64,000 nucleotides of DNA from an uncultured Acidobacteriota bacterium (lineage in GTDB: Bacteria > Acidobacteriota > Terriglobia > Terriglobales > Acidobacteriaceae). Position numbers and translations under genes: made by a program. The notes under the pieces were generated by a model. The model did not search any database and was not told where the DNA came from. It saw only the letters and a program-made list of their open reading frames with translations. Below are positions 3,001-64,000 of this stretch, in pieces (within the stretch, counting starts at the first letter, position 1; every line of letters begins with the position of its first letter). The stretch covers positions 354,690 to 418,689 of the forward strand of contig CAWETV010000001.1 in NCBI GenBank assembly GCA_963812095.1, read 5' to 3'.

Positions 3001-6000
3001 CATCTCTCATATCCATCAGCCCCGGAATCAACGTGGGCGGCGACATAACCATCAACAGCAACATCGTTGTGGTCTTCAGCCAGCCCATGGACCGCACCAC
3101 CATCAACACCGGCTCGATGACGATGCAGCTGTATCAGAACGGAACCTTTATCTCGGTTCTCGGCACTGTGAGCTTGGACGCCGCGGGCCGCGTCGCTACC
3201 TTCACGCCGAATTCCCTGCTGGCGCCCAACTCGCAGTTCTACTTCACGCTGTCAAGCAACATCAAGGACGCTACCGGCAACGGCTACCCGGGCAATAGCT
3301 GGTGGCTGTACACGAACTTCAGCTACGCCTTCGCGCCGACGGTAGTTGCGGCCAACCCACCGGCCACAAGCACAGTTGGAAATAACGTGCCCATCCAGAT
3401 TGAGTTCAGCTCGCCCATGGATCAGTCCATCGCCTCCGGCCTGACAGTCACCGCCAATGGCAATCCGGTCGCCGGCACCTACAGTTGGAACTCGACCGTC
3501 AACTGCTGCTCGTGGGGTCCGGGCACGATTCTGTACTTCTCGCCCACCTCGCCCCTGTCGGCCGGCAGCTATACGGTGAGTTGGGACTCTCCGCTGGTCG
3601 ACACAGCCGGCAACCTGGTGACGCCAGGATCGTTCAGCTTTACTGTCGGCAGCAGCCCCGATACGGCTCAGAATTACACCGGTCCAGACTTCCAGAACGG
3701 CGTTGGCAACGTGGGCACCAACTTCGCGCCCAAGGTCAACTTCTCCAAGCCGGTCGATCCGATCGACATCAACACAGGCACGCTGCTGCTCTACAACGGC
3801 GACAGCGGCAAGTATGTGAACGGCGCGGTAACCCTGGCCCCCGGCGGCATGAGCGCAACCTTCACGCCGACGGCGGCGTTGTTGCCCAACACCTACTACC
3901 GCATCCACATGGCGTGGGGCAATTACGACGCCGACGGCAACTACCTCTACGGAACCGACAGTTACTTCACCACTGGCGCTGGAACCGATAGCGCCGGACC
4001 GTCAGTGGCTTCCATTTCACCCGCTGATCAGTCCATCTCCATCCCCGTCAACACCGAGATCGTGGCTCACTTCAGCGAGCCCATCGATCCCTCGGCCTAT
4101 TCGATCACCGTCACGCCTTCCGCTGGATCGCCGGCCGCAGGCACCGCAACACTGTCAAGCGACAACCTGACGCTGACCTTCGTGCCCACGGATTTCCTGC
4201 AGCCGGGCACCCTCTATACGGTGCAGGTCAGCGGCTTCCAGGATATGGTCGGCATTTCGGGCACGACCTCCACAACCACCTTCACCACAGCAAATTCTGC
4301 CGTGCTCTTTAACCTCTCCACCGGACTGGATGCCTCGGGCAACCTGATCACAACGGGCGACACCGTGGATCCGCACTGGAGCTACGTGTCCACATCCCCC
4401 AACACTTCAGGCGAGAGCAACTTCCTCTATCCCGGAGATGCTTCTTCCGATGCCTACACCGGTTCGCTCAAGGTAGTGGCGCCCGGAAACGCCGGCTGGT
4501 ACGGCGGCTGGGGAGCCAACGGCCCCAGTTCCTCGTGGATCGCCATCAACCCGGACAGCGTTCAGGGCAACACCTACGGCTTCTACTCGACCTCATTCAC
4601 GATGCCCAGTGTCCTGCCCCCCAGCACTCACATATGCCTGGCCGGCTACTGGAGCCACGACGACAACGCCCTGCTTGCCCTGAACGGAACGCCCATCATG
4701 GGCGACCAGGGGAACGTATACTCCTTGTCTCCGCTCAACATCGACATCACCAGCAACCTGCTGCTGGGATCAACCAACTACCTGACCGTCGGATTTGGCT
4801 CTACCGACAATTCCTATGAGGGGGCGCGCGTACAGGCTGTCGTCGAAAGCTGCGGGGCCAGCGAAACCGCCGGGACCTCGTTGACTGGCACCACCAGCAA
4901 CCTGGTCCTGACCAGCGCGACGCCGGGCTGGAATGCCCAGAATGTACCCACCAACACCAACATCGCCCTGACCTTCAACAACGCGCTCGATCCGGCTACC
5001 GTGAACTCTTCCACCCTGCCGGTAATGATCAGCAACCAGGTGATTGCGGGCGGCTACGTGGTCACTGGTAGTGGAGTCAATTTCACTCCGGACAGTCCAT
5101 TCCCGACCAACACCCAGGTCTCGGTCAACGCCTGCAATGGCCCGTACGATCTGGCGGGCGACTCAGCCGCTTACAACGGCTGCGGGACGCAGCTCGACTA
5201 CTTCAACACCGGGTCCACTGCGACTCCGGCCTCCACGCCCTTCCAGGCGACCGCCATCACCCCTGCCGCAAATGCCACCAATGTCGGCCTGCGCGCGCCG
5301 GTTACGGTTACCTTCAATCGCTCGGTCAACCTGGGCACAGTGAATCAGAACGACTGGGGTCTGTTCGCCGGCGACGGCCAGAGCCCATGGTGCTCCACCA
5401 ACTACTCGCACTCGCAGGACGACGCCACGCTCGAGTTCAACTGCTACCCGCTGCCCTCCAGCGCAACCATGACCGGCATGGTGAACTCCGGCCTTCAGGA
5501 TTGGCAGGGCAACGGCTTCACCGCCAATTCGGTGCTCAATGGCCAGTGGCAGTTCTCAACCACCAACTACGATTCGAACACCAACGGCACCTTTATCACC
5601 ATCCGGCCCGGCAGCGGCGCCGGTGGTGTGGACCCCAATCTCCCGCTGACGTTCTACAGCAACCTGCCCATCGATCCTTCTACGGCCGCTGGCGGCCTTC
5701 AGGTGGCCGTCAACAACACCGAAGTATCGGGAACGGTACAAGTGCTGGGCAGCGGCTACACGATGGAATTCACGCCGAATGCGCCGTGGCCTGCCGGAGC
5801 GCTCGTCCAGTGGTGGACTACCGGCAGCATCATGAACACCACTTACGAAACGCCGTTCAACACCACCAGCGGCTACTTCTACGTCGCCGGCGATACCAGC
5901 CAGGCAGCGCCGGCGGCGCAAACAGTGTCGCCGTCGCAAAATACTTCCAACATTCCGTTGAACTCGGTTTTCGACCTTCAGTTCAATGTGCCCATCAATG

Positions 6001-35305: not shown

Positions 35306-35325
35306 CTGATCTTTCCCTTTCTCTG

Positions 35326-35373
35326 CCCCTTGTTCCCTCAGTCCCTTGTTCCCTATTCCCTATTCCCTATTCT
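35326..35373. repeat. Intercistronic C3-tract heptamer array (CCCTATT family) between nuoH and nuoJ
   Basis: ccccttgtt ccctcagt cccttgtt ccctatt ccctatt ccctatt ctt. It abuts the nuoH stop at 35373. Confidence 0.85.
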
Positions 35374-36560
35374 TACTCGGCATAACGGTACCTCCGCGGG
35401 CCGATGCTGCGCCGCCGCGTTTCTATGAGGCCCATCAGCGCCCAGGCAGCCACCAGGATCGCCGTGCTGACCACCCATCGCAGCCAGCCCTCGCCCATGA
35501 ATCTCCACAGAGCCGTCACCAGAAGATCGAGCAGCGTAAAGGGCAGCAGAAACTTCCAGGCAAAATTCATCAACTGGTCCTGCCGGACGCGCGGCATCGT
35601 GCCTCGTATCCAGATATAGACGATCAGGCAAAAGAACACTTTCGCGAAAAACCAGAACCACGACGGGACCCAGGTGAGGAACGACAGAGGCGCCGACCAC
35701 CCGCCCAGAAACAGCGTCGTGCCCAGTCCCGACATGGAAATCATCGCCAGGTACTCGCCGATAAAAAAGATCGCGAATTTAAAGCCCGAGTACTCGATGT
35801 GATAGCCGGCGATGATCTCCGACTCACCTTCGGGCACGTCGAAGGGCGAGCGATTGGTTTCGGCCATGCCGGCGATCACGAAGACCACGCAGGCGGCCAG
35901 TCCCCAGGGAGTAAAGACGTACCAATGGGGAAACACGCCCGTGTACCCGTTCTGAGCTTCGACAATTCGCGGCAACGACATCGAACCGCTAATCATCACC
36001 ACGGTCACGGTGGAAAGCAGCAGAACCACCTCGTAGCTGATCATCTGCGCCACGGCGCGCATCGCCCCCAGCAGCGAGTACTTGTTGCGGCTCGACCACC
36101 CCGCCATGAAAACGGCCAGCTCCGTTGCGGCGCCCATGGCAATGAAGAAGAGCAGGCCCGCGTCCATGTCCACCAGCACCATGTTCCGCCCCACGGGCAG
36201 CACAGCGTAGCCCATGAACACGGTAACCAGCAGCACCAGCGGCGCCAGAAAATGCACGAGCGCGTCGGCGCGGGAGGGAACAATGTCTTCCTTGATCAGC
36301 GCCTTGATGCCGTCGGCGATGGGCTGAAGCAGTCCGTAAGGGCCCACGCGGTTGGGTCCGTACCGGTTCTGGATGCGCCCCACTCCCTTTCGCTCAAAAA
36401 CGACCACCAGAGCGAACATCGACGGAAAAACGCAGATAATGGCAACCACGCCAATCACGACCTTGGCGATCGGCTGCAGAGCGGCGGGAATAAAACTCAC
36501 CACCCAGTCCCGAAAAAGAACGAAGATCTGGTCCAGGTTTGCGGCCAGAGAACCGTGCAT
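35373..36560 (-). CDS. nuoH: NADH-quinone oxidoreductase subunit H
   Basis: FERKGVGRIQNRYGPNRVGPYGLLQPIADGIKAL.KED...SLLGAMRAVAQMISYEV...PFDVPEGESEI.AGYHIEYSG. I chose ATG 36560, 4 nt after the nuoI stop. The Arg/Pro-rich upstream ORF extension is rejected. Confidence 0.9.
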   Translation of the reverse strand: MHGSLAANLDQIFVLFRDWVVSFIPAALQPIAKVVIGVVAIICVFPSMFALVVVFERKGVGRIQNRYGPNRVGPYGLLQPIADGIKALIKEDIVPSRADALVHFLAPLVLLVTVFMGYAVLPVGRNMVLVDMDAGLLFFIAMGAATELAVFMAGWSSRNKYSLLGAMRAVAQMISYEVVLLLSTVTVVMISGSMSLPRIVEAQNGYTGVFPHWYVFTPWGLAACVVFVIAGMAETNRSPFDVPEGESEIIAGYHIEYSGFKFAIFFIGEYLAMISMSGLGTTLFLGGWSAPLSFLTWVPSWFWFFAKVFFCLIVYIWIRGTMPRVRQDQLMNFAWKFLLPFTLLDLLVTALWRFMGEGWLRWVVSTAILVAAWALMGLIETRRRSIGPRRYRYAE

Positions 36561-36564
36561 CGTG

Positions 36565-37182
36565 CTAGTCTCCTCCCGCGCGCGGCGTCTCGGCGGACGC
36601 CGTCGCCTTGGCCGCCGCGGCCGCTTTGGCTTTGGCCGCCTCGGCGGCCTTGGCTTCGGCCTTGGCCTTTTCCTCGGCCAGGCGAGCATCCACCTCGGCA
36701 GCCTCGGTTGGATGGATGCTGTGATAGTACTCGTTCGACCGGGCCAGGTGCTGGCGGTCTAAGAGCAGCCCTCCGAATCGATTCTCGGTGGCCAGCTCGA
36801 ACTCAGTATTCATTTTGATCGCTTCGAAGGGGCAGACTTCCACGCAGATCTGGCAGCTCATGCACACCGAAGTGTCGATGTCGAAACGCGTCGGGTAGAA
36901 CTGCTCCTTGCCGATGAAATCCGGCTTCTTGTCCTTGCTCTTCTCAATCAGGATGCACTTGGGCGGGCACTCTTTCTCGCAGATCTGGCAGGCCACGCAG
37001 CGCAGCCCCGCCTGCCAGTCCGCGCCATCGTAGACGAGGAAGGGAAAGACGCGCGCGGCCTCGAACGACGGCTCCCGCTCTTCTGGATACTCCACCGTCG
37101 TCAACCGCTTGGCGGAGAAAAAGCTGCCGAAGAAATTCTTCGCCGTCTCCGCCAATCCCTTCAGTATGCCTTCACCCAGCAA
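36565..37182 (-). CDS. nuoI: NADH-quinone oxidoreductase subunit I (2x[4Fe-4S]) with Ala/Lys-rich C-terminal tail
   Basis: CVACQICEKECPPKCI and CMSCQICVEVCPFEAI ferredoxin motifs. The tail reads EEKAKAEAKAAEAAKAKAAAAAKATASAE. TTG start. It is located before nuoH, not after it. Confidence 0.85.
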   Translation of the reverse strand: MLGEGILKGLAETAKNFFGSFFSAKRLTTVEYPEEREPSFEAARVFPFLVYDGADWQAGLRCVACQICEKECPPKCILIEKSKDKKPDFIGKEQFYPTRFDIDTSVCMSCQICVEVCPFEAIKMNTEFELATENRFGGLLLDRQHLARSNEYYHSIHPTEAAEVDARLAEEKAKAEAKAAEAAKAKAAAAAKATASAETPRAGGD

Positions 37183-37201: not shown

Positions 37202-37248
37202 CTTAGCCCCTTAGTCCCTCGTTCCCTATTCCCTATTCCCTATTCCCT
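37202..37248. repeat. Intercistronic heptamer/octamer array (CCCTATT family) between nuoD and nuoI
   Basis: cttagcccc ttagtccc tcgttccc tattccc tattccc tattccc tgc. Confidence 0.85.
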
Positions 37249-54556: not shown

Positions 54557-55567
54557 ATGATTCTTCATCTCATCGCCGCTCGCAGCGGCTTGTTTGCAGA
54601 AGGCCGTTTTCTCGGCAAGGTCCTCGACGAGTGGGGCGCCGATGCGCAGGAGTTCGTCCGCCTTCGCCTGCCGCACCTCGTGGTTGTGGCTCTGATCGCT
54701 TTTCTTCTTGCCAGGTTGCTCCGCGTCATTACCCGCCACATGGTGAGCGCCGCCGAGAAGCACGCCGTCGGCGCCGGCCGCGCGGCTCAAGTGAAAACGA
54801 TCGCCGGAGTCATCCGCGCCACCGGCCTGGCCGTCATCGGCGTCATCGCCGGGCTGCAGTTTCTCGATGCCCTCGGATTCAACCTCGGCCCCCTGCTGGC
54901 CTCGGCCGGAATTGCCGGCGTCGCCATTGGCCTGGCGGCGCAGAACATCGTCCGCGACATGCTCAACGGCATTCTCATTCTCATCGAAGGCCAGTTCAGC
55001 GTGGGCGACACGGTGCGCCTGGCCGGCGTCGCAGGCGTCGTCGAAGAGATGACCCTGCGCCGCACCGCCGTTCGCGACGCCGACGGCACGCTCTACGTCA
55101 TTCCCAACTCGCAGATCACCACCGTAGCCAACCTGAGCGCCGGCTACTCGGTCTCCAGCGTGAACATCAGCGCGGATTTCTCGGCCGACCCCGATCGGAC
55201 GACGCAACTGCTCCGCGAGATCGCCATGGAGGTGCGCACGAGCGACGCCTTCCGCGACATCTTCGTCGAGGACCCGAAGGTCCTGGGCATGGATGCGATC
55301 AAGGGCTCGCAACTGGTCTTCCCGGTGATCTTCAAGACGCAAGCCAACCAGCAGTACGGCCCTGTGCGCGAGTTCCAGCGGCGGGTGCGGCTGGCCTTCG
55401 AGCAGAACGGCATTTTGCCCGGCGACCCCGGCCGCATTTTCAACGCCTTTGGCGAGAAACCGGGCGATGGAGTTCCGGCCCGGAATCCATCTCACGAGGA
55501 ACCTGCCGCCGCGCACGATCCGACCGCTGTCAAGCCGCACGAGGGGAATCCGTTCAGCGGGGAGTAG
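54557..55567 (+). CDS. Mechanosensitive ion channel (MscS family)
   Basis: ..LGPLLASAGIAGVAIGLAAQNIVRDMLNGILILIEGQFSVGDTVRLAGV.GVVEEMTLRRT.VRD.DGTLYVIPNS.I. Confidence 0.9.
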   Translation: MILHLIAARSGLFAEGRFLGKVLDEWGADAQEFVRLRLPHLVVVALIAFLLARLLRVITRHMVSAAEKHAVGAGRAAQVKTIAGVIRATGLAVIGVIAGLQFLDALGFNLGPLLASAGIAGVAIGLAAQNIVRDMLNGILILIEGQFSVGDTVRLAGVAGVVEEMTLRRTAVRDADGTLYVIPNSQITTVANLSAGYSVSSVNISADFSADPDRTTQLLREIAMEVRTSDAFRDIFVEDPKVLGMDAIKGSQLVFPVIFKTQANQQYGPVREFQRRVRLAFEQNGILPGDPGRIFNAFGEKPGDGVPARNPSHEEPAAAHDPTAVKPHEGNPFSGE

Positions 55568-55601
55568 GGGCGGCGCATCGGTTGACCCCACGCAGAAATT
55601 C

Positions 55602-56285
55602 CTAAGGCATGCGATTGAGCTGTGCAGCGAGCTTTTTCATGGCTGCATTTTCGCGGGTAACTTCGCCAGTCTCTCGACTGTGCAAAGCGATCTCTGCGGC
55701 GATTGAGCGACCGAGAATTCGCTGGTCAATATTGCCAAACGACCCAGGCACGAGGCTTCCGAACCAACCGACCCAGGCCGGGGTGTGGGCGTTGCCGGCA
55801 ATGATGCCGGGGCGAAAGATGGCGAGGCGGGTAAAACCGACCTTGCGCACGGTGTCTTCCTTCATGCCCATGATTCGCGCATAGCGAATCCGGCTGCGAG
55901 TTGAGCTGCCAGCCGCAGAAAGCAGGCAAAACTGGGCGATTCCGGCCTCATGGCAGCCACGCGCAAAGGCACCGACGACGCCGAGCTCAAGCTGTTTCAA
56001 TTCTTCTTCGCTCCAGCGCATCGATCCGGACCCAACACCCACACAGCTCACGGCGCTGGCGGGACCTTGGCTTATAACTTCGCGGGCAAGGGCGGCAGTG
56101 CGCTCGGCAAAGTCAGCAGCGCCGGTATCAAGAACGACGTTGCGCACCCGCGATCGCGGCGCAATGGGCTTTCTGGTGACCATCACCACTTCCCGGCATT
56201 CGGAAGTTGCCAGCAGTTCTGCGACGGCTGCACCGCCGACTTGTCCGGTACCGCCAAGGATCATTACGGCGAAATTCTGCTCCAC
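55602..56285 (-). CDS. NAD(P)-binding Rossmann-fold oxidoreductase (atypical SDR/HTATIP2-like)
   Basis: AVMILGGTGQVGGAAVAELL...VVMVTRKP is the N-terminal GxxGxxG. GTG start at 56285; an alternative ATG lies at 56264. Confidence 0.7.
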   Translation of the reverse strand: MEQNFAVMILGGTGQVGGAAVAELLATSECREVVMVTRKPIAPRSRVRNVVLDTGAADFAERTAALAREVISQGPASAVSCVGVGSGSMRWSEEELKQLELGVVGAFARGCHEAGIAQFCLLSAAGSSTRSRIRYARIMGMKEDTVRKVGFTRLAIFRPGIIAGNAHTPAWVGWFGSLVPGSFGNIDQRILGRSIAAEIALHSRETGEVTRENAAMKKLAAQLNRMP

Positions 56286-56439
56286 AAGTAGGACCTCCGC
56301 TTAGGTAAGGATGCGACATCCGGCCCCGATCCCACCACGTTATGGATCGGTGGTATCATGATTTCGCACTTTTCCCCGGTTGAACCCGTGCACCTGAGAT
56401 ACAACCGACCACCCCACAATTCAAAATGAATCGAGGAGA

Positions 56440-56880
56440 ATGATGTCAAAATTCAAAGTCCTTGCATTCCTGGCCGTCACCATCGGCTTGTTATGCTGTG
56501 CGCATCGAGCGCCGGCCCAGGTCTCCATCAACATTGGAGTAGCGCCTGTGTGCCCCTACGGGTACTTCGACTATCCCCCGTATAACTGCGCACCCTATGG
56601 CTACTACGGACCCGATTGGTTTGTTGGCGGCGTGTTTATTGGAGCCGGCCGCTGGTTCCACGGCCCCGCCCACTTCAACGGCCATGTCGATAACCGCTAT
56701 GACCCTCGTCATGGTTACAGAGGACCGGTGCCTGCGCGCGGAGCTGAGCAGTTCAACCACTTCCATGGCAACGAGGCGAGGGATGGGAAGGGCCACGTGG
56801 TCAAAGGCGATCATGATGCCGGCAATGAACACGCTCTGCCCGGATATCGTGCCGGCGGCCATGGCGAAGAGCACCGCTAG
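56440..56880 (+). CDS. Small secreted Gly/Tyr/His-rich hypothetical protein
   Basis: AGGAG lies upstream. Signal peptide MMSKFKVLAFLAVTIGLLCCAHRAPAQ. The mature part is rich in Y/G/P/H (PYGYFDYPPYNCAPYGYYGPDWF). Confidence 0.6.
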   Translation: MMSKFKVLAFLAVTIGLLCCAHRAPAQVSINIGVAPVCPYGYFDYPPYNCAPYGYYGPDWFVGGVFIGAGRWFHGPAHFNGHVDNRYDPRHGYRGPVPARGAEQFNHFHGNEARDGKGHVVKGDHDAGNEHALPGYRAGGHGEEHR

Positions 56881-56960
56881 AGCGATTCTGAAATTGCGTG
56901 AGGCCGGCGTTCGAAATCCGGCCCTTCAACCAGGTCTATTGCAACTTGATTTTGTACCAA

Positions 56961-57003
56961 TGCGGGTGCCCCAGGTCCCGCTTTTGGGACCTGGGAAAGC
57001 ACG
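56961..57003 (+). repeat. REP-like hairpin element (GGGTGCCCCA-box family)
   Basis: GCGGGTGCCCCAGGTCCCGCTTTTGGGACCTGGGAAAGCACG, with stem CCCAGGTCCC/GGGACCTGGG. Confidence 0.8.
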
Positions 57004-57043
57004 ATTTTTAACTTCCTATTGTCAGAAGCCTGGGCCTATACCT

Positions 57044-57148
57044 TCAACTCGCCTTCCCCAGCGCCTCCTTGAGCGCCTCGGCGCTGGTGGCTGGCGGCAG
57101 GCAGGTGCGCCCGAGGCAGACGAGTGCCCAGGCCTCGGCCTTGGCAAT
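57044..57148 (-). pseudogene. Relic duplicate of the yyaL-like gene 3' end, in frame directly after the ATPase stop
   Basis: It translates [34 protein letters not shown]. The real C-terminus at 58369-58470 reads ..[33 protein letters not shown]. The nucleotide match is about 95 bp with roughly 10-15% mismatch. Confidence 0.75.
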
Positions 57149-58327
57149 TCAGCTATCCAGGGTTGCCAGCAATTCGGCAAGTTCGCGCACCCCGATGGCC
57201 TGCGTCTCGGCGTCGACTGGGTATTGGCCGCTACCGGCATTCACCACATAGCGGCGATCCGGCTTGAGATCCTTGCAGGCTATGTAGTAGCCCTTTTCCG
57301 GCCGCCCGGTGAGGCTACGCTTGATCTCGATTGCCCAAAGGCCGTGGCCGGGAATTTCCAGCAGGAGGTCGATCTCCGCGCCGGCAGAGGTCCGGTAGAA
57401 GCTGGCCATGGTGCGCTCTGGCGCAGCCTCCAATAGGTTCTCGATCACCATGCCCTCCCACGATGGACCCGCAACTGGGTGACCGGCAAGCTCGTTGAAT
57501 GTTCGGATTCCCAGCAGCGCATGCACAAGACCGCTGTCCCGCACGTAGACCTTGCGTGATTTCACCAGTCGCTTGCCCAGATTGCGATGAAAAGGCATAA
57601 GCTGCCGAACCAGCAGCAGATCAGTCAGCAGGTCGATGTACCGCTGCACGGCGGGCGCAGAGACTTGCAAGCCGGAAGCAAGCCTGGATGCATTCAACAG
57701 GGCGCCCTGATTGTGCGCGAGCATGGTCCAGAACCGTTCCATGGTCCCGGCTGAAATTCGCGGGCCAAACAGGGGCACGTCGCGTTCAAGATAAGTCCGG
57801 ATAAAATCGTTGCGCCAGCGAAGGCTCACCCCATCGTTTTCGGCCAGATAGCTTCCCGGAAATCCTCCGCGCAGCCACAACCGAAGCAGCGTTGACTCGT
57901 CGGCCGGCAACTCGATAGCAGAAAATGGCCCCAGTTCGATGTAAGAAATCCGGCCGGCAAGACTCTCGCCCGATTGCCGGAGCAAGTCGATCGAAGCCGA
58001 TCCAAGAACGAGGAAACGCCCTTTACCCTGTCCCTTGCGCCGACCCTCGTCAATAAGACCACGAAGAGAGCCGAATATCTCGGGTGCGCGATGAATCTCG
58101 TCGAGAACGACGAGGTTCCTTTCGAATTGGCGCAGAAATAGCACCGGGTCAGCTAGCTTATCCCGGTCCGCTCTGGATTCGAGATCCAGATAGAGCGCTC
58201 CAGGCCGGGAATCAGCGAGGCTTCGCGCCAGGGTTGTCTTGCCTGCCTGCCGCGGCCCAAGAATGGCCACAGCAGCCTGCGTATTCAGCGCCTGCTCAAT
58301 TCGAGGTGTAATCCACCTGAATATCAT
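57149..58327 (-). CDS. AAA+ ATPase with DUF4143-type C-terminal domain (COG1373 family)
   Basis: Walker A ILGPRQAGKTTLA and Walker B-like NLVVLDEIH. The C-terminal half (..YVRDSGL.HALLG.......HP..G..WEG.VIE....) is typical of AAA_14/DUF4143 proteins. Confidence 0.8.
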   Translation of the reverse strand: MIFRWITPRIEQALNTQAAVAILGPRQAGKTTLARSLADSRPGALYLDLESRADRDKLADPVLFLRQFERNLVVLDEIHRAPEIFGSLRGLIDEGRRKGQGKGRFLVLGSASIDLLRQSGESLAGRISYIELGPFSAIELPADESTLLRLWLRGGFPGSYLAENDGVSLRWRNDFIRTYLERDVPLFGPRISAGTMERFWTMLAHNQGALLNASRLASGLQVSAPAVQRYIDLLTDLLLVRQLMPFHRNLGKRLVKSRKVYVRDSGLVHALLGIRTFNELAGHPVAGPSWEGMVIENLLEAAPERTMASFYRTSAGAEIDLLLEIPGHGLWAIEIKRSLTGRPEKGYYIACKDLKPDRRYVVNAGSGQYPVDAETQAIGVRELAELLATLDS

Positions 58328-58368
58328 CCTTGCATTTTAAACGCAGCGAGTTCGATTTGCAATAATCA

Positions 58369-60514
58369 TCAACTCGCCCTCCCCAGCGCCTCCTTGAGTG
58401 CCACGGCACTCGTCACCGGCGGCAGGCAGGTGCGCCCGAGGCAGACGAGCGCCCATGCTTCGGCTCCCTCGGGGGCTGGCGCCTGGAGCAGAGTTTCTTC
58501 CAGAGCTTCAGGGATTCCGCCCGGCACAAGCTGCGAAGGGGCGATGCGGAGAACGGTCTTGTTCACGGCGTAACCGGCGACGGCCGCTGCCTCAAGCCGC
58601 TCTGCCTCCGGCCCCGAGCCCACCACGGCCACCTGCACCGGATCTCTGAGCAGCCGCTCCAGCGCGAGCGCATAGCTGCCCGCGTAAAGGCCCAGGTGCT
58701 CCGCGATGCCTGCAAAACCGGCCAGCGTCTTCTCGGCGATCTCGCGATATTCGCCGGCGGCCACTTAAAGCTTCAAGCCGCAGCAGGGCCGCCGCGGCCG
58801 TAGGATTGCCGGCCGGCGTGGGCGCATCCTGCAAGGGCTTGCGCCGCGCCACGAGCGCCCCCAGCGGCGCGCTGTCGCAAGTGTCGAAGAAGCCCCCCGC
58901 CCCGCTGTCATAAAAGCGCGCGATCATGGCGTCGGCGATCTTCACGGCGGCCCGGTAATGCTCCATTTTGCCGCTTGCCAGCCACCCGTCTACGCAGGCG
59001 AGAACGGTAAACGCATAATCGTCGAGCACCCCTGCCGGGCGTTTCCCTGGCGCTGACGCGGCCGCGCCCTGCGCGCTCCCGGGATAGGAAATCACATGGC
59101 TGAGCGCCGATTCCCCGTCCCAGGCCTCGGCCAGCAGGCGGTTCAGGGTCAGCAGCGCGAAATCCCGGGCCGTGTCCATTCGCAGCACGCGCGCCGCCTC
59201 CAGGTACGCGGTCACAGCCATCGCATTCCAGCCGGTGTAGAGCGTCCGGTCGATAAATGGCGTGGGGCGCAGCGCGCGCGCGGCCAGCAGTTCCTCCCGT
59301 GCCCGGTCCCGCAACTCTGTCAGACCGGCCCCGCCGTCGGCCGCCATCTCCTCGATGGGATGATTGACATGCAGCACATTCTTGGCGGGGTTGTGGTGCA
59401 TATCGCCCAACTCGCCGATGTCCCAGTAGAGGCCCGCAAATTGCAGTTCCTCCCCGTCCAGCACGGCTTTCGCTTCGTCCAGAGTCCAGGTGAAGTAGTC
59501 GCCGTCGTCGTCCAGGCCCACGTCGGCGTCCTGCGAGGCGTAGAAGCCGCCGCGCTCGCGGTCGGTCATGGCCGCATCGAGCCAGCCGACGATGTCGCGC
59601 GCAGTCTCGCCGAAATCCGGCCGTGCCAGGCTCTGGAAGCCGTGCACGTAATTGCGCAGCAGCTCCGTGTTGTCGTAGAGCATCTTCTCGAAGTGCGGCA
59701 CCAGCCAGTGCTCGTCCACCGAGTAGCGATGAAATCCGCCGGCGAGTTGATCGTAGACGCCCCCGTGCGCCATCTTCTCCAGCGTCACGGCAAAGGCCTC
59801 GCGCGCCTGCTCATCGCCGCGGGTCAGCAGCAGATCGAGCGCCGCCGGGTGGGGAAACTTTGGCTGCGAGCCGAAGCCTCCGTGGCGCGGATCGAACTGG
59901 CGGAGCATGGAGCCGGCGATCTTGTCGACGAGCGCCAGGGAAAGCTCGCCGCCGCCGGCGCCGGTGAAACTTTCGTTTTGCTCGACAGCGGCCATCACGC
60001 TGGCTGCGGTCTCCAGCGCTTCCTCGCGGCGCTCGCGCCAGACCTCGGCCATGGCCGTGAGCACGCGCGGGAAGCCGGGCCGACCGTAACGGTCTTCAGG
60101 GGGTAGATAGGTGCCGCCGTAATAGGGCCGCCCGTCGGGAGTGAGGAACGCCGTAAGCGGCCATCCCCCCTGCCCGCTGATCGACGAAACCGCCGACTGG
60201 TAGCGCGCATCCAAATCCGGCCGCTCGTCGCGGTCCACCTTCACGGCGACAAACTCCCGGTTGATCAGCGCCGCGATCTCTTCATTTTCATAAGACTCGC
60301 GGTCCATCACGTGGCACCAGTGGCACCACACCGCGCCAATGTCGAGCAGCACCGGCTTGTCCTCGGCCTGTGCGCGGGCAAAGGCCTCCGTGCCCCAGGG
60401 GTGCCACTGCACCGGCTGGTGCTTGGCCGAGCGCAGGTAAGCTGAGGATGCATTTTGAAGCTGATTCGGGCTGGAGTTCAGCGAAGAAGCATCATGCATG
60501 GGCTGAGGATACAC
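58369..60514 (-). CDS. Thioredoxin-domain (DUF255) / six-hairpin YyaL-like protein, frame interrupted by a 1-nt indel near 58760
   Basis: N-terminus: ..[62 protein letters not shown]. After ..[10 protein letters not shown](SG) the conserved continuation [17 protein letters not shown]... reads in the 58369-58764 frame. The start is GTG 60514 or ATG 60499. Confidence 0.85.
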
Positions 60515-60550
60515 GGACGGCGGCTCATCGGGCCAGACGGAGGCGGAGAA

Positions 60551-60607
60551 GGGATCAGGGACTAAGGGACTAAGGGACTAAGGGACTAAGGGACTGAGGG
60601 ACTAAGC
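60551..60607. repeat. Tandem octamer array (GGGACTAA)x~7
   Basis: gggatca gggactaa gggactaa gggactaa gggactaa gggactga gggactaa. The last unit contains the TAG stop of the GNAT gene. Confidence 0.9.
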
Positions 60608-61165: not shown

Positions 61166-61318
61166 TAAAAGACAGAGCAGGCCGCCCAGGGGCGGCCCGC
61201 ATGATCGAAAGCGGTCAATCTGAAAGCCGGGTGCCCCACCCTCGGCGTCCGCCGCGGCGGATTTTTGCGCCTAGGGTGGGAGACAAGAATGGACTTGCCA
61301 TCAAAGGAATCTGAGCGC

Positions 61319-62357
61319 TTACACCTTCGCTTCCAAGCTCGCAATCACGTCGAAGAAGCGCTGGTCGAGCCGGCGGTTGGTGGTGATCGCATCCTTGATG
61401 GGGATATCGGCGATATCGGTGCCGCGCAGCACGGCGATGAGGCCCCACTTGCCTATCGTGCACCATGTCGATAGCGTGCAGTCCGTAGCGCTGGCCCAGC
61501 AGCCGGTCAAAGGCCGTGGGTACGCCGCCGCGCTGGGTGTGGCCCAGGTTCACCGAGCGGGTCTCGTAGCCGGTCTTCTTCTCGATCAGGTTGGCCAGCG
61601 CCTCGCCAATGCCCGACAGGCGCACGTGACCGAAGGAGTCCTTGGCGGCAGCCTCGTTGATCACCTGGCCGACCTCGGGCAAATGCGCGCCCTCGGCCAC
61701 CACCACCACGCCGTAGTGCTTGCCGTGGTCGTAGTTGTACTTCAGCAGTTTGCAAACGTGGTCGATGTCGATCTCTTTCTCCGGAACCAGCACCACGTGC
61801 GCGCCGCCGGCCACGCCCGAAGCATAGGCGATCCAGCCCGCGTCGCGGCCCATCACCTCGACCACGATCACGCGGTTGTGCGAGTCGGCGGTGGTGTGAA
61901 TGCGGTCCACGGCTTCGGTAGCGATCATCACCGCCGTGTCGAAACCGAAGGTCTGGTCAGTGCCGCTGATGTCGTTGTCGATGGTCTTGGGCACGCCGAC
62001 GGCGTTGATGCCGTTCTCGCACAGATAGAGCGTCACCGACTGCGTATCGTCGCCGCCCAGCGCGATCAGCGCATCGATTTTGTTCTTCTTCAGCACCTCC
62101 TGCACCTTCTCAATGCCCCCGGGGATCTTCTTCACGTTGGTCCGCGAGGAGTGCAGAATGGTGCCGCCCTTCAACTGAATGCCGTCGATTGCTTCGAGCG
62201 TCAGCGGAATGAAGTTGTTGTCCAGAACGCCCTTCCAGCCGTTCAGAAAACCGATAAACTCGTCGCCGTAGTGGTTAATTCCCTTCTTCACGGCCGCGTA
62301 AATCACCGCGTTCAAACCGGGGCAGTCGCCGCCGCCGGTTAACAGTGCAATTCGCAT
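61319..62357 (-). CDS. pfk: 6-phosphofructokinase with PPi-type signature residues, frame interrupted by a 1-nt indel near 61455
   Basis: MRIALLTGGGDCPGLNAVI...ALGGDDTQS...VGVPKTIDNDI...VEVMGRDAGWIA...LGHTQRGG. After ..HAIDMVHD the continuation GKWGLIAVLRGTDIADIPIKDAI...IASLEAKV* reads in the 61319-61510 frame. Confidence 0.85.
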
Positions 62358-62549
62358 CGTAGAATTCTCCTGATCGAAATGGCGCGGGCCGCTCGAGCCG
62401 CGCCGGGAATCTGTTCCTGAGCCGGGCGCAAAACGGGGAACTTTCCGGTTCCGCGCCCTGTCCAGTTTACTCCCGGGCTTCGAAGCGAAACCTCTCCGCA
62501 CTTGCGCCGGCCGGATGGGATTCCTATGTTGGGAAGAGAAACTCAGGCC

Positions 62550-62933
62550 TCACGCCGCGGTCGCCCGATAGACGCGCACTTCCGAGTCGATGGTCTTTGA
62601 CAGGGCCAACCTGGCCTTGGTGAGATCGTGCATCTGCTGGAGATTGAGCCAGAACTCCGGGCTGTTGTCGAAGAATCGCGCCAGGCGCAGGGCCGTATCG
62701 GGCGTGATGGCCCGCTTGCCGCGCACGATCTCGCCGATGCGGGTAGCCGGCACGCGAATGCTCATGGCCAGCCGGTGCTGACTGATCGCCATCGGCTTCA
62801 GGAACTCCTCGGCCAGCATTTCGCCCGGAGAGGTGGTCACGTACTTGAAGTCCCACCCCTTCGCCGGACGTACGAGGGGCACCTCGCTCGCTTGCTTCTT
62901 TTCCTTAGTGGTAGTCAACGATTTCGACGTCAT
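62550..62933 (-). CDS. higA: HigA-family antitoxin (XRE HTH)
   Basis: ..SPGEMLAEEFLKPMAISQHRLAMSIRVPATRIGEIVRGKRAITPDTALRLARFFDNSPEFWLNLQQMHDL matches the HigA/VapI consensus. It overlaps the higB 3' end by 29 nt. Confidence 0.85.
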   Translation of the reverse strand: MTSKSLTTTKEKKQASEVPLVRPAKGWDFKYVTTSPGEMLAEEFLKPMAISQHRLAMSIRVPATRIGEIVRGKRAITPDTALRLARFFDNSPEFWLNLQQMHDLTKARLALSKTIDSEVRVYRATAA

Positions 62934-63183
62934 ACGCCCCATCCTCCTTCCAGACAAAACAAATGCGAAACTGGTCGTTGATGCGGATGCTGTGCTGTCC
63001 CGCTCTCTCGCTCCTTAACAACTCCAACCGATTTCCCTGAGGTTCCCGGAGGTCTTCCAGCCGGGTCGCGGCCTCAATCCGGTTGAGCTTCCGGCGGGCG
63101 GCGGCTTCAATGTTTCGCCATTTTCGGCTGGTCCCGGCAATCGCCAGCAACGCTGTATCGCGGTCCTTGAAGCTTCGAATCAC
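62905..63183 (-). CDS. higB: HigB toxin (RelE/ParE superfamily, plasmid maintenance killer type)
   Basis: (V)IRSFKDRDTALL........RKL..I..A..LEDL.....NRLE.L...RAGQHSIRINDQFRICFVW.EDGAYDVEIVDYH. GTG start at 63183. The long upstream track extension is rejected. Confidence 0.8.
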   Translation of the reverse strand: MIRSFKDRDTALLAIAGTSRKWRNIEAAARRKLNRIEAATRLEDLREPQGNRLELLRSERAGQHSIRINDQFRICFVWKEDGAYDVEIVDYH

Positions 63184-63308
63184 GAATCCATAGTATGCTG
63201 TCTCGCGTTCAACGTCAACCGTTTCGATGGGACCGCATTTGGAACAACTGCAGATGCCTCCGCTTCGCTTCTCTGGAGCGTCGGGATGACAGGCGAAGGT
63301 TGGGCGGG

Positions 63309-64000
63309 CTATTCGTCGCGCGAGCTGGTCGCCTCGTCTTCGTAGATTGCGCCGATCGCTTCCGCGTAGCGCTCCGAAATTACGCGCCGCCTGAGCTTCA
63401 TTGATGGCGTCAGCTCGCCTGAATCCTGCGTCCACTCCTCGGTCACCAGCCGGAAGCGCTTGAGGGTTTCGAACTTGGCCAGGCCGCCGTTCACCTCGCG
63501 GACGATCTCGCTATAGAGGGCCCGGACGCGGCTGTGGGAAACCAGCTCGTGCCGCGATTCGGCCTCGACCCCGTGACTGCGCGCCCACTCCTCCAGGGCG
63601 GCGAAATTCGGAACAATCAGCGCGGAGATGAACTTGTGCTTGTCGCCCACCAGCGCCGCGTTCGCCACCATCAGGTGGCTCGTGAGCTTGCTTTCGATCG
63701 GTTGCGGCGCCACGGTCTTGCCGCCCGAAGTCTTCAGCAGTTCCTTTTTGCGATCGGTGATGTGCAGGTACCCGGCGCAGTCCATGTGTGCGATGTCGCC
63801 GGTGTGAAACCATCGTTCCGCATCGAGGCATACGGCGCTGGCTTCCGGCTTGTTCCAATAGCCCGCGAAGACCGATGGCCCGCGCACCAGCAGTTCCCCG
63901 TCTTCGGCGATCCTGACTTCGATATTGCCGAGCGGCATGCCGACCGATCCCATGCAGTGGCGCAGCGGAGTGTTCAGCGCGATCACCGGCGAGGTCTCCG
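63309..64000 (-). CDS. AMP-dependent long-chain acyl-CoA synthetase/ligase, C-terminal part (start lies beyond the window)
   Basis: ..GELLVRGPSVFAGYWNKPEA......WFHTGDIA..D..GYL.ITDRKKEL.KTSGGK.VAPQPIE......GELTPSMKLRRRVI. The frame is open to nt 64000. Confidence 0.85.
   Translation of the reverse strand, partial: ETSPVIALNTPLRHCMGSVGMPLGNIEVRIAEDGELLVRGPSVFAGYWNKPEASAVCLDAERWFHTGDIAHMDCAGYLHITDRKKELLKTSGGKTVAPQPIESKLTSHLMVANAALVGDKHKFISALIVPNFAALEEWARSHGVEAESRHELVSHSRVRALYSEIVREVNGGLAKFETLKRFRLVTEEWTQDSGELTPSMKLRRRVISERYAEAIGAIYEDEATSSRDE

Follow-up and report, generated by a model that had tools for sequence, protein, structure and literature searches.

In a 64,000-nucleotide (nt) stretch of contig CAWETV010000001.1 (assembly GCA_963812095.1) from an uncultured member of the Acidobacteriaceae, hereafter the window, a yyaL-like host gene encoding a DUF255/thioredoxin-domain protein (58369..60514, minus strand; Pfam Thioredox_DsbH, 9e-70) is followed by a single-gene ATPase cassette, and the cassette is bracketed by two copies of the yyaL 3' end. 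All components lie on the minus strand. The upstream repeat copy (58369..58464), delimited by repeat alignment, forms the functional last 31 codons and the stop codon of yyaL, and is followed by an AT-rich cassette leader of 41 nt with 39% GC (58328..58368; promoter scan) and by an open reading frame (ORF) of 392 amino acids (aa) with AAA_14 and DUF4143 domains (57149..58327; Pfam, PADLOC). A 9-nt junction, ATTGCCAAG, read directly from the sequence (57140..57148), connects the ATPase stop codon to the downstream repeat copy (57044..57139; repeat alignment), an intact but stranded 31-codon yyaL terminus with its stop codon that we refer to as the relic. The interval between the repeat copies consists only of the leader, the ORF and these 9 nt, as a preliminary description made from the sequence alone had proposed save for the 9 nt, and the ATPase is the only gene between the repeats, in agreement with the single-gene cargo without a recombinase reported there.

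The direct repeat (57044-57139 and 58369-58464) is 96 nt long and ungapped, with 85 of 96 positions identical (89%), and its copies are spaced 1325 nt apart, copy to copy. The 11 mismatches agree with the roughly 10-15% of the preliminary description, and both of its repeat translations were reproduced; its end coordinates (57140 and 58470) were a few bases too generous and are corrected here to 57139 and 58464. A mismatch-free core of 32 nt, CTCGTCTGCCTCGGGCGCACCTGCCTGCCGCC, was present at exactly two places in the window and absent from all 100 shuffled sequences, and sequence similarity broke off abruptly at both edges of the repeat. The relic shares the reading frame of the ATPase (..LDS* IAK AEAW..), as had been noticed, which is consistent with chance as frame arithmetic on coordinates placed two of four coding cases in frame. 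The YyaL protein of a relative aligned to just 27 aa at the relic, indicating that the relic is not what remains of a complete yyaL paralogue and refuting the tandem-duplication origin that the preliminary description had put forward as a counter-explanation.

The cassette ORF matched AAA_14 (7e-25) and DUF4143 (1e-44) in Pfam and, over residues 2-384, the PADLOC candidate defence family PDC-S01 (PDLC04790, E=2e-87). In 46 homologous sequences sharing 55-87% identity, residues G24..G29-K30-T31-T32 and D76-E77 of the Walker A and B motifs (GxxxxGKTT, DE) were invariant, as were E318, D320, E334 and K336, which form the PD-(D/E)XK motif E318/D320...E334-x-K336 and bear out the suspicion that a nuclease signature might be found in the C-terminal domain. 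This invariance fits the published placing of DUF4143 among the PD-(D/E)XK nucleases (PMC3424549), and by its sequence the ORF is a full-length PDC-S01 member in which an AAA+ ATPase is fused to a predicted DUF4143 PD-(D/E)XK nuclease domain. The AlphaFold2 model (mean predicted local distance difference test score 58.6) was too poor to confirm the nuclease fold, Foldseek gave just generic AAA+ matches and a sequence search of the PDB with the ATPase was empty. PDC-S01 has been described as a very common and widespread single-gene defence candidate with validation pending, as is the case for most such candidates of the core defensome (PMC12988326), and the ATPase-nuclease is likely, as a candidate only, to serve nucleic-acid-targeting defence. 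Members of the family were found on 234 plasmids, including a Granulicella plasmid copy at 76% aa identity, and were nearly missing from phages. The exact ATPase protein was not found in the contig index, the protein databases held no ATPase above 88% identity and no yyaL relative above 81% aa identity, and an exact search of genome and metagenome collections with the 32-nt core gave no match. Our literature searches on DUF4143, COG1373, PF13173 and PDC-S01 found nothing about mobility, nor anything on a conserved PDC-S01 leader or on flanking host-gene duplications.

A promoter-like site in the leader (TTGCAA, 17-nt spacer, TAAAAT; 58362..58334, promoter scan) has its -10 hexamer, TAAAAT, ending 6 nt upstream of the ATPase ATG, so that a leaderless ATPase mRNA is predicted. 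Across 197 distinct loci from many phyla the leader consensus was a palindrome, AtCcTTGcAAaTt...tttAAt.TgCAAGG-ATGAT, directly abutting the start codon, and the leader in the window is a degenerate version of this family palindrome with a weak hairpin (z = -1.0). This leader (CCTTGCAAAT..ATTTGCAAGG) was the sole conserved non-coding element and contained no attC cores (RYYYAAC/GTTRRRY). Extra copies of the palindrome that could mark a second element end were rare, as a regular-expression scan flagged 13 of 174 loci, several of them unrelated or artefactual, and at loci L088 and L140 the flanking repeats were the leader itself. Solo leaders, consisting of the conserved palindrome and merely the first 14-61 nt of the ATPase ORF, were seen in L371 (4359-4503) and L088 (5245-5316) and upstream of the cassette in L041, L075, L084, L099 and L054, and they look like remnants of deleted or replaced cassettes.

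The preliminary description had recommended a search for an empty site in relatives, and for this comparison we used the related yyaL loci of 32 Acidobacteriaceae (L001-L032; 47-81% aa identity over the C-terminal 131 aa). The cassette was absent from the yyaL 3' end in all 32, which supports the interpretation of the ATPase unit as an insertion at this position. A convergent mscS-like gene lay 7-92 nt past the yyaL stop codon in 19 relatives, and 0.5-3.8 kb of unrelated DNA or genes separated yyaL from mscS in 7 of the 32. In the Acidobacteriaceae the gap between the convergent yyaL and mscS genes is a variable site, with mscS marking its far edge; in the window it spans ~2.8 kb (55568-58368) and is occupied by the cassette, the relic, a small ORF that looks secreted and a gene for an NAD-binding protein.

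The borders of the cassette were also apparent from its homologues. At the nucleotide level, homology with the closest cassettes (L033-L038, 72-79% nt identity) begins 35-43 nt before the ATG, which coincides with the end of the upstream repeat, and runs to the ATPase stop codon in the best match, L033, fading 29-105 nt earlier in the others. These homology borders match the interval between the window repeats and support the cassette borders defined by them. Cassette pairs that were 88-96% identical and lay in unrelated flanks shared the same unit of leader and ORF, its limits lying 35-59 nt upstream of the ATG and 0-17 nt past the stop codon, and rearrangements were frequent exactly at the leader border in the form of solo leaders and one-sided context changes. 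The window locus and its parallels define the transferable unit as a ~41-nt promoter/operator palindrome plus the ORF, for a family reported among the commonest prokaryotic candidate defence genes (PMC12988326). On two Rhizobium plasmids the cassettes (L368 2916-4162 and L372 2759-4004) were 97.4% identical between flanks of 87-91% identity, which by sequence comparison is a recombination tract confined to the cassette, and sister plasmids either lacked the cassette (L370) or retained the leader alone (L371). These Rhizobium plasmid comparisons yielded presence/absence variants and no repeats, and the cassette there adjoins an integrase gene. Ectopic gene conversion between cassettes, as exemplified by L368/L372, could be a source of sharp ends. 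Seven independent metagenome contigs carrying P0124 (L119-L125) start 37-134 nt upstream of the same cassette, which suggests strain-level heterogeneity or repeats at the cassette 5' border.

To determine how often flanking repeats recur, the 700 nt on either side of the ATPase ORF were compared with each other in three sets of homologous loci. Significant direct repeats were found at L060/L062, L046, L088, L087, L053 and L043 among 80 loci from a first scan of genome contigs, at L154, L156 and L128 among 82 loci from metagenome contigs, and at L318, L348, L313, L315, L337, L333 and L347 among 71 loci from a second scan of genome contigs. Overall, ~16 of 233 homologous cassettes (~1 in 14) possessed flanking direct repeats in comparison to 4 of 308 control ORFs (Fisher p = 9e-4), and among the four control matches at least two were simple or low-complexity repeats and one was without explanation. 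An 8-nt unit, AGGGACTA (CCCTATTC on the other strand), forms intergenic tandem repeats at 60549-60600, 35325-35372 and 37205-37247 of the window and caused a false flanking-repeat match around control ORF 35346-36818.

The recurrent repeats were 36-381 nt long with 80-96% identity, and their sequences differed between loci, indicating that they are host-derived. In the window as well as at L060/L062, L043, L154, L333, L347, L337 and L348 the upstream copy lay inside the gene or ORF that closely precedes the cassette in the same orientation, with host genes that included a HAD hydrolase (L060/L062), an APH-family kinase (L154), a TldD-like gene (L043) and a HicB-like gene (L348), and the downstream copy began 5-176 nt past the ATPase stop codon. 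Duplicated host-gene termini around other DUF4143 cassettes, which had been named as a sign to look for, do occur and involve other host genes, and none of ~230 other cassettes sits at a yyaL 3' end. No motif common to seven junctions was seen on inspection by eye (no formal motif search was run), no segment between repeats and cassettes was common to different loci, and the distance from the stop codon of upstream co-oriented ORFs to the leader showed no striking clustering. A protein-level search for older relics added no cases beyond those detected at the nucleotide level. The L313 repeats resemble dispersed repeats of the repetitive extragenic palindromic (REP) type. At L128, two fragments resembling the 3' half of a transfer RNA (tRNA; 2172-2209 and 3676-3723, opposite strand) bracket a cassette whose protein is 87% identical to that of the window; one of them carries a CCA end, and ARAGORN calls no tRNA gene there. 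Repeats of 72-74 nt were considered as tRNA genes and rejected, as ARAGORN found none. Toxin-antitoxin-like pairs (MNT/HEPN; HicB-like plus partner) are involved at L087 (3329-3402 / 5289-5362) and L348 (192-569 / 2289-2669), where the repeat covers the end of the pair's first gene and the initial codons of its second, and the intact pair stands upstream of the cassette.

The distribution of differences between the two copies was informative on their origin. In the window, mismatches at codon positions 1, 2 and 3 numbered 0, 3 and 8, and the corresponding values were 2, 1 and 8 at L060, 2, 2 and 8 at L043, 2, 1 and 7 at L154 and 2, 0 and 7 at L333. The copies of L154 differed by 10 nt and no amino acids, including a serine encoded by AGC in one and TCC in the other, and both tails stop at the same codon. 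Pooled over six loci whose repeat falls within a co-oriented ORF upstream, there were 61 nt differences against 12 aa differences. In a simulation of in-place duplication (4000 runs) in which the functional copy was under constraint and the relic evolved neutrally, the mean was 35 aa differences and the minimum 22, so that in-place duplication followed by neutral decay is rejected over the six loci. The low number of amino acid relative to nucleotide differences indicates that most of the divergence arose while both copies belonged to working genes, that is, in two lineages.

Locus L060 allowed the native copy to be recognised. Its empty-site relatives L209 and L210 are syntenic (82-83% nt identity over 3.7 kb) with a gene ending in ..KELMR*, and the flank that follows this end is homologous to the flank after the L060 relic (..KELMP*), whereas the functional L060 copy runs into a foreign tail, IDLYPVPPRP*, followed by 35 nt and then the leader. 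The L060 relic is on this evidence native and the functional terminus came with the cassette. By analogy, the relic in the window is probably the native yyaL end displaced by the insertion, and the upstream terminus would have arrived with the cassette. The earlier proposal of an insertion that brought a replacement terminus is upheld by the 32 unoccupied relatives, the third-position bias (8 of 11 mismatches), the native relic of L060 and the recurrence at other host genes. Relics decay after insertion, as the L060 relic holds derived non-synonymous changes, that of its sister metagenome-assembled genome (MAG) L062 has one more change and the L347 relic carries an in-frame stop codon. No clear mosaic tract emerged when identity between L060 and its empty-site relatives was scanned in sliding windows.

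We favour, if only by a modest degree of confidence, a passive homology-driven integration through a single crossover of small DNA from a related donor or through a one-sided alternative. A horizontally acquired single-gene cassette, made up of the promoter/operator leader and the PDC-S01 ORF, would have entered the yyaL-mscS site and brought along the final 96 bp of the yyaL gene of a related donor; the findings require a donor whose orthologous gene was already followed closely by the cassette. Pairing would have taken place by homology inside yyaL, most plausibly in a Campbell-type single crossover with circular or re-circularised DNA of ~1.3 kb; a homologous event on one side combined with an illegitimate second join may serve as an alternative. 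One side would then be seamless within the gene, and the other would join a point a few to ~100 nt past the ATPase stop codon to a point tens of codons before the stop codon of the recipient. The donor-type terminus would complete yyaL, the resident terminus would be left as an untranslated relic 9 nt past the ATPase stop codon, and the ATPase would be a passenger in the integration step. A single crossover with a small circle carrying the cassette and a piece of the donor gene would give exactly the observed product, and the geometry is of the Campbell type in that the insert lies between direct duplications whose copies, judging from the signature of purifying selection and from L060, derive from donor and recipient. 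In experiments designed to detect homology-facilitated illegitimate recombination (HFIR) in Escherichia coli, 56 of 60 integrants were single-crossover insertion-duplications and the 14 that were sequenced had duplicated 109-950 bp (PMC3240628). The 234 plasmids that carry the family are available vehicles for cassette transfer. For the window we infer the native state of the downstream copy, a circular intermediate and the participation of host homologous-recombination functions such as RecA.

Several observations weigh against this passive integration. For the window we saw no donor state and no empty site from the same species, as yyaL relatives reached at most 81% aa identity and ATPase relatives at most 88% in the searched collections, and recombination over 96 bp at 89% identity is inefficient, with only the 32-nt core reaching the usual minimum length. 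The test against in-place duplication was only borderline for the window alone (P = 0.046). The control ORFs were mostly core genes, and the enrichment of flanking repeats may mark recently acquired genes generally instead of PDC-S01 specifically. The junctions from ATPase stop codon to repeat were tight in several independent loci (5, 9, 13, 16 and 30 nt) and cassette ends were sharp in unrelated contexts, which together hint at a defined element end that a purely passive model does not predict.

These last points could instead reflect an autonomous single-gene mobile element, whose AAA+/PD-(D/E)XK protein would break the 3' end of a target gene or the DNA beside its own gene, with repair off a cassette-bearing template copying the cassette and the adjoining donor terminus; such an element would resemble free-standing homing endonuclease genes that duplicate a displaced host-gene 3' end. 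The invariant nuclease residues speak for this explanation, as do the sharp ends of the closely related pairs (35-59 nt before the ATG, 0-17 nt past the stop codon, at 88-96% identity in unrelated flanks), the tight 3' junctions, the rearrangement hot spots at the cassette borders, where solo leaders and changes of context on one side are seen, the 55-67% identity held over many phyla with a conserved leader, and the metagenome contigs that often break just 5' of the cassette. We nevertheless consider it rather unlikely, as the host genes vary (yyaL, HAD hydrolase, APH-family kinase, TldD-like gene, toxin-antitoxin pair) without a common junction motif by eye, ~93% of cassettes are without a flanking repeat, sharp ends can come from ectopic conversion between cassettes, and the family is an unvalidated defence candidate (PMC12988326) whose activity is predicted. 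Passive homology-driven integration accounts for the data at least as well as self-movement of the ATPase. The broader proposition that PDC-S01 cassettes are widespread autonomous one-gene mobile elements, with a nuclease that promotes insertion at or near gene 3' ends and brings a replacement terminus, is in our estimation unlikely. If true, these cassettes would represent the equivalent, on bacterial chromosomes, of free-standing homing endonuclease genes, and the reported rank of PDC-S01 as the fourth most common candidate defence system would partly reflect selfish spread.

The repeats might otherwise represent attL and attR sites, produced by a site-specific recombinase supplied in trans or left by an island whose other genes were deleted, in which case the ATPase would be what is left of the cargo, in the manner of a cis-mobilisable element. 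The classic footprint of gene-end-targeting integrases is a duplicated gene 3' end that contains an identical core, here of 32 nt, and the tRNA-3'-half-like fragments on both sides of the L128 cassette and the integrase gene next to the Rhizobium plasmid cassette point in the same direction. There is no integrase between the repeats, within 5.7 kb on the upstream side or in the 5.5 kb of window on the other side, and the cassette takes up nearly the whole interval (0-6 nt and 9 nt to spare), a tidiness that random internal deletions would rarely achieve and that is equalled at L154, L053 and L060; as no core common to different loci was seen by eye, many different integrases would be needed, and we regard this explanation as quite improbable. 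The integrative-island-like mechanism suggested in the preliminary description likewise failed to find support, since there was no recombinase gene at 51.4-64 kb, no tRNA gene in the 64-kb window (ARAGORN) and no inverted repeat linking the cassette ends. The least probable explanation, which we hold to be very improbable, is that the 96 bp were duplicated in place at insertion, as a very long target-site or local tandem duplication, and that the relic has since decayed. Its geometry is compatible with a target duplication, and the derived non-synonymous changes of the L060/L062 relics, one of them distinguishing the sister MAGs, and the in-frame stop codon at L347 are in keeping with decay; it is contradicted by the excess of simulated (~35) over observed (12) aa differences, by the 10 nt and 0 aa differences of L154, by repeat lengths that vary from 36 to 381 nt and by the occurrence of near-identical repeats in 0 of ~16 cases. 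Two further candidates were ruled out: an insertion sequence or transposon, as no inverted repeat joins the ends, Pfam found no transposase domain and the repeat length (36-381 nt) is not fixed, and an integron gene cassette, as the leader is without attC cores and there was neither an array nor an integrase at 51.4-64 kb.

The footprint shares features with several known systems. Integrases that target gene 3' ends, such as those acting on tRNA genes and those of prophages e14 and 21 in icd, provide a replacement terminus with mostly synonymous differences and leave the native terminus at the far junction. The footprint here shares both features but differs in having no integrase, no att core seen by eye to be conserved across loci, and a cargo of one gene. 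In fungal mitochondria, free-standing homing endonuclease genes duplicate the displaced host terminus (Allomyces atp6, Ophiostoma rps3), and as in the window and L060 a single nuclease ORF stands beside a hybrid host gene and is followed by the displaced native terminus; those genes home to one conserved target gene, whereas here the target genes differ and homing is hypothetical. In Campbell-type insertion-duplication and HFIR, DNA with one stretch of homology integrates and becomes flanked by a direct duplication, and no element-encoded recombinase is needed. What differs here is a natural, recurrent footprint around one gene family, with homology from a diverged orthologue (7-20% nt) and a putative circle, and the usual product of classical HFIR is an insertion accompanied by a deletion, unlike the duplication observed here. 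In C-terminal displacement of rhs, cdiA and type VI secretion system (T6SS) effector-immunity genes, the incoming segment supplies a new 3' end plus cargo and the old end is orphaned downstream (PMC5361080 and the rhs studies cited there). Both cases have an incoming segment anchored in a conserved part of the gene and an old 3' end pushed downstream. In those systems the new end is a different toxin tip and the cargo its immunity gene, whereas here the new end is an equivalent orthologous terminus and the cargo an unrelated predicted ATPase-nuclease with its own promoter.

The repeats provide a recurrent and datable insertion footprint in which a host-gene terminus from a related donor would be duplicated and would displace the native one. 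With it, the way in which a defence candidate spreads at the level of the gene can be put to a direct test, between host homologous recombination acting on small circles and nuclease-driven homing. Short intact gene ends downstream of such cassettes should also be recognised in genome annotation as relics.

The genes at 51.4-64 kb of the window encode pyruvate:ferredoxin oxidoreductase (PFOR), ferredoxin, the mscS-like gene (54557..55567, plus strand; Pfam MS_channel_2nd and synteny in relatives), the NAD-binding protein, yyaL, GNAT, phosphofructokinase (PFK), HigBA and an AMP-binding enzyme, and Rfam gave zero matches over 54.0-61.5 kb. The small ORF (56440-56880, no family) and the NAD-binding gene (55602-56285) of the variable site were found in 0 of the 32 relatives, and the flank downstream of the relic had no homologue beside yyaL in relatives save for a dispersed 45-nt hairpin. 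This hairpin is an inverted repeat, CCCAGGTCCC-N6-GGGACCTGGG (56970..56995, no strand assigned), read from the sequence in the stretch that separates the relic from the convergent small ORF. It fails the criteria of the terminator scan, has a 45-nt match elsewhere in locus L014 and may act as a terminator in both directions or belong to a dispersed repeat.

The yyaL-like gene is split into two ORFs by a frameshift between 58752 and 58760, as the protein of a relative aligns in one frame as far as 58760 (75%) and in another from 58752 onwards (81%). The neighbouring PFK gene (61215-62501) is apparently also frameshifted at ~61500, with its Pfam domain stopping at aa 346 of 428 and the true C-terminus in ORF 61319-61510, and two broken core genes within 3 kb make assembly indel errors likelier than true pseudogenes. 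A HigB/HigA-like toxin-antitoxin pair lies at 62550-63435, ~2 kb past yyaL. At L053 a distant yyaL homologue (2-817, 43% aa identity) lies ~1 kb upstream of another cassette in divergent orientation, which is probably a coincidence. Metagenome contig L129 contains a 326-nt fragment (4129-4451) that is 91% identical to part of the window NAD-binding gene (55913-56237) in opposite relative orientation, and this contig also carries a different allele of the ATPase cassette (85% aa identity) together with a HipA toxin gene.

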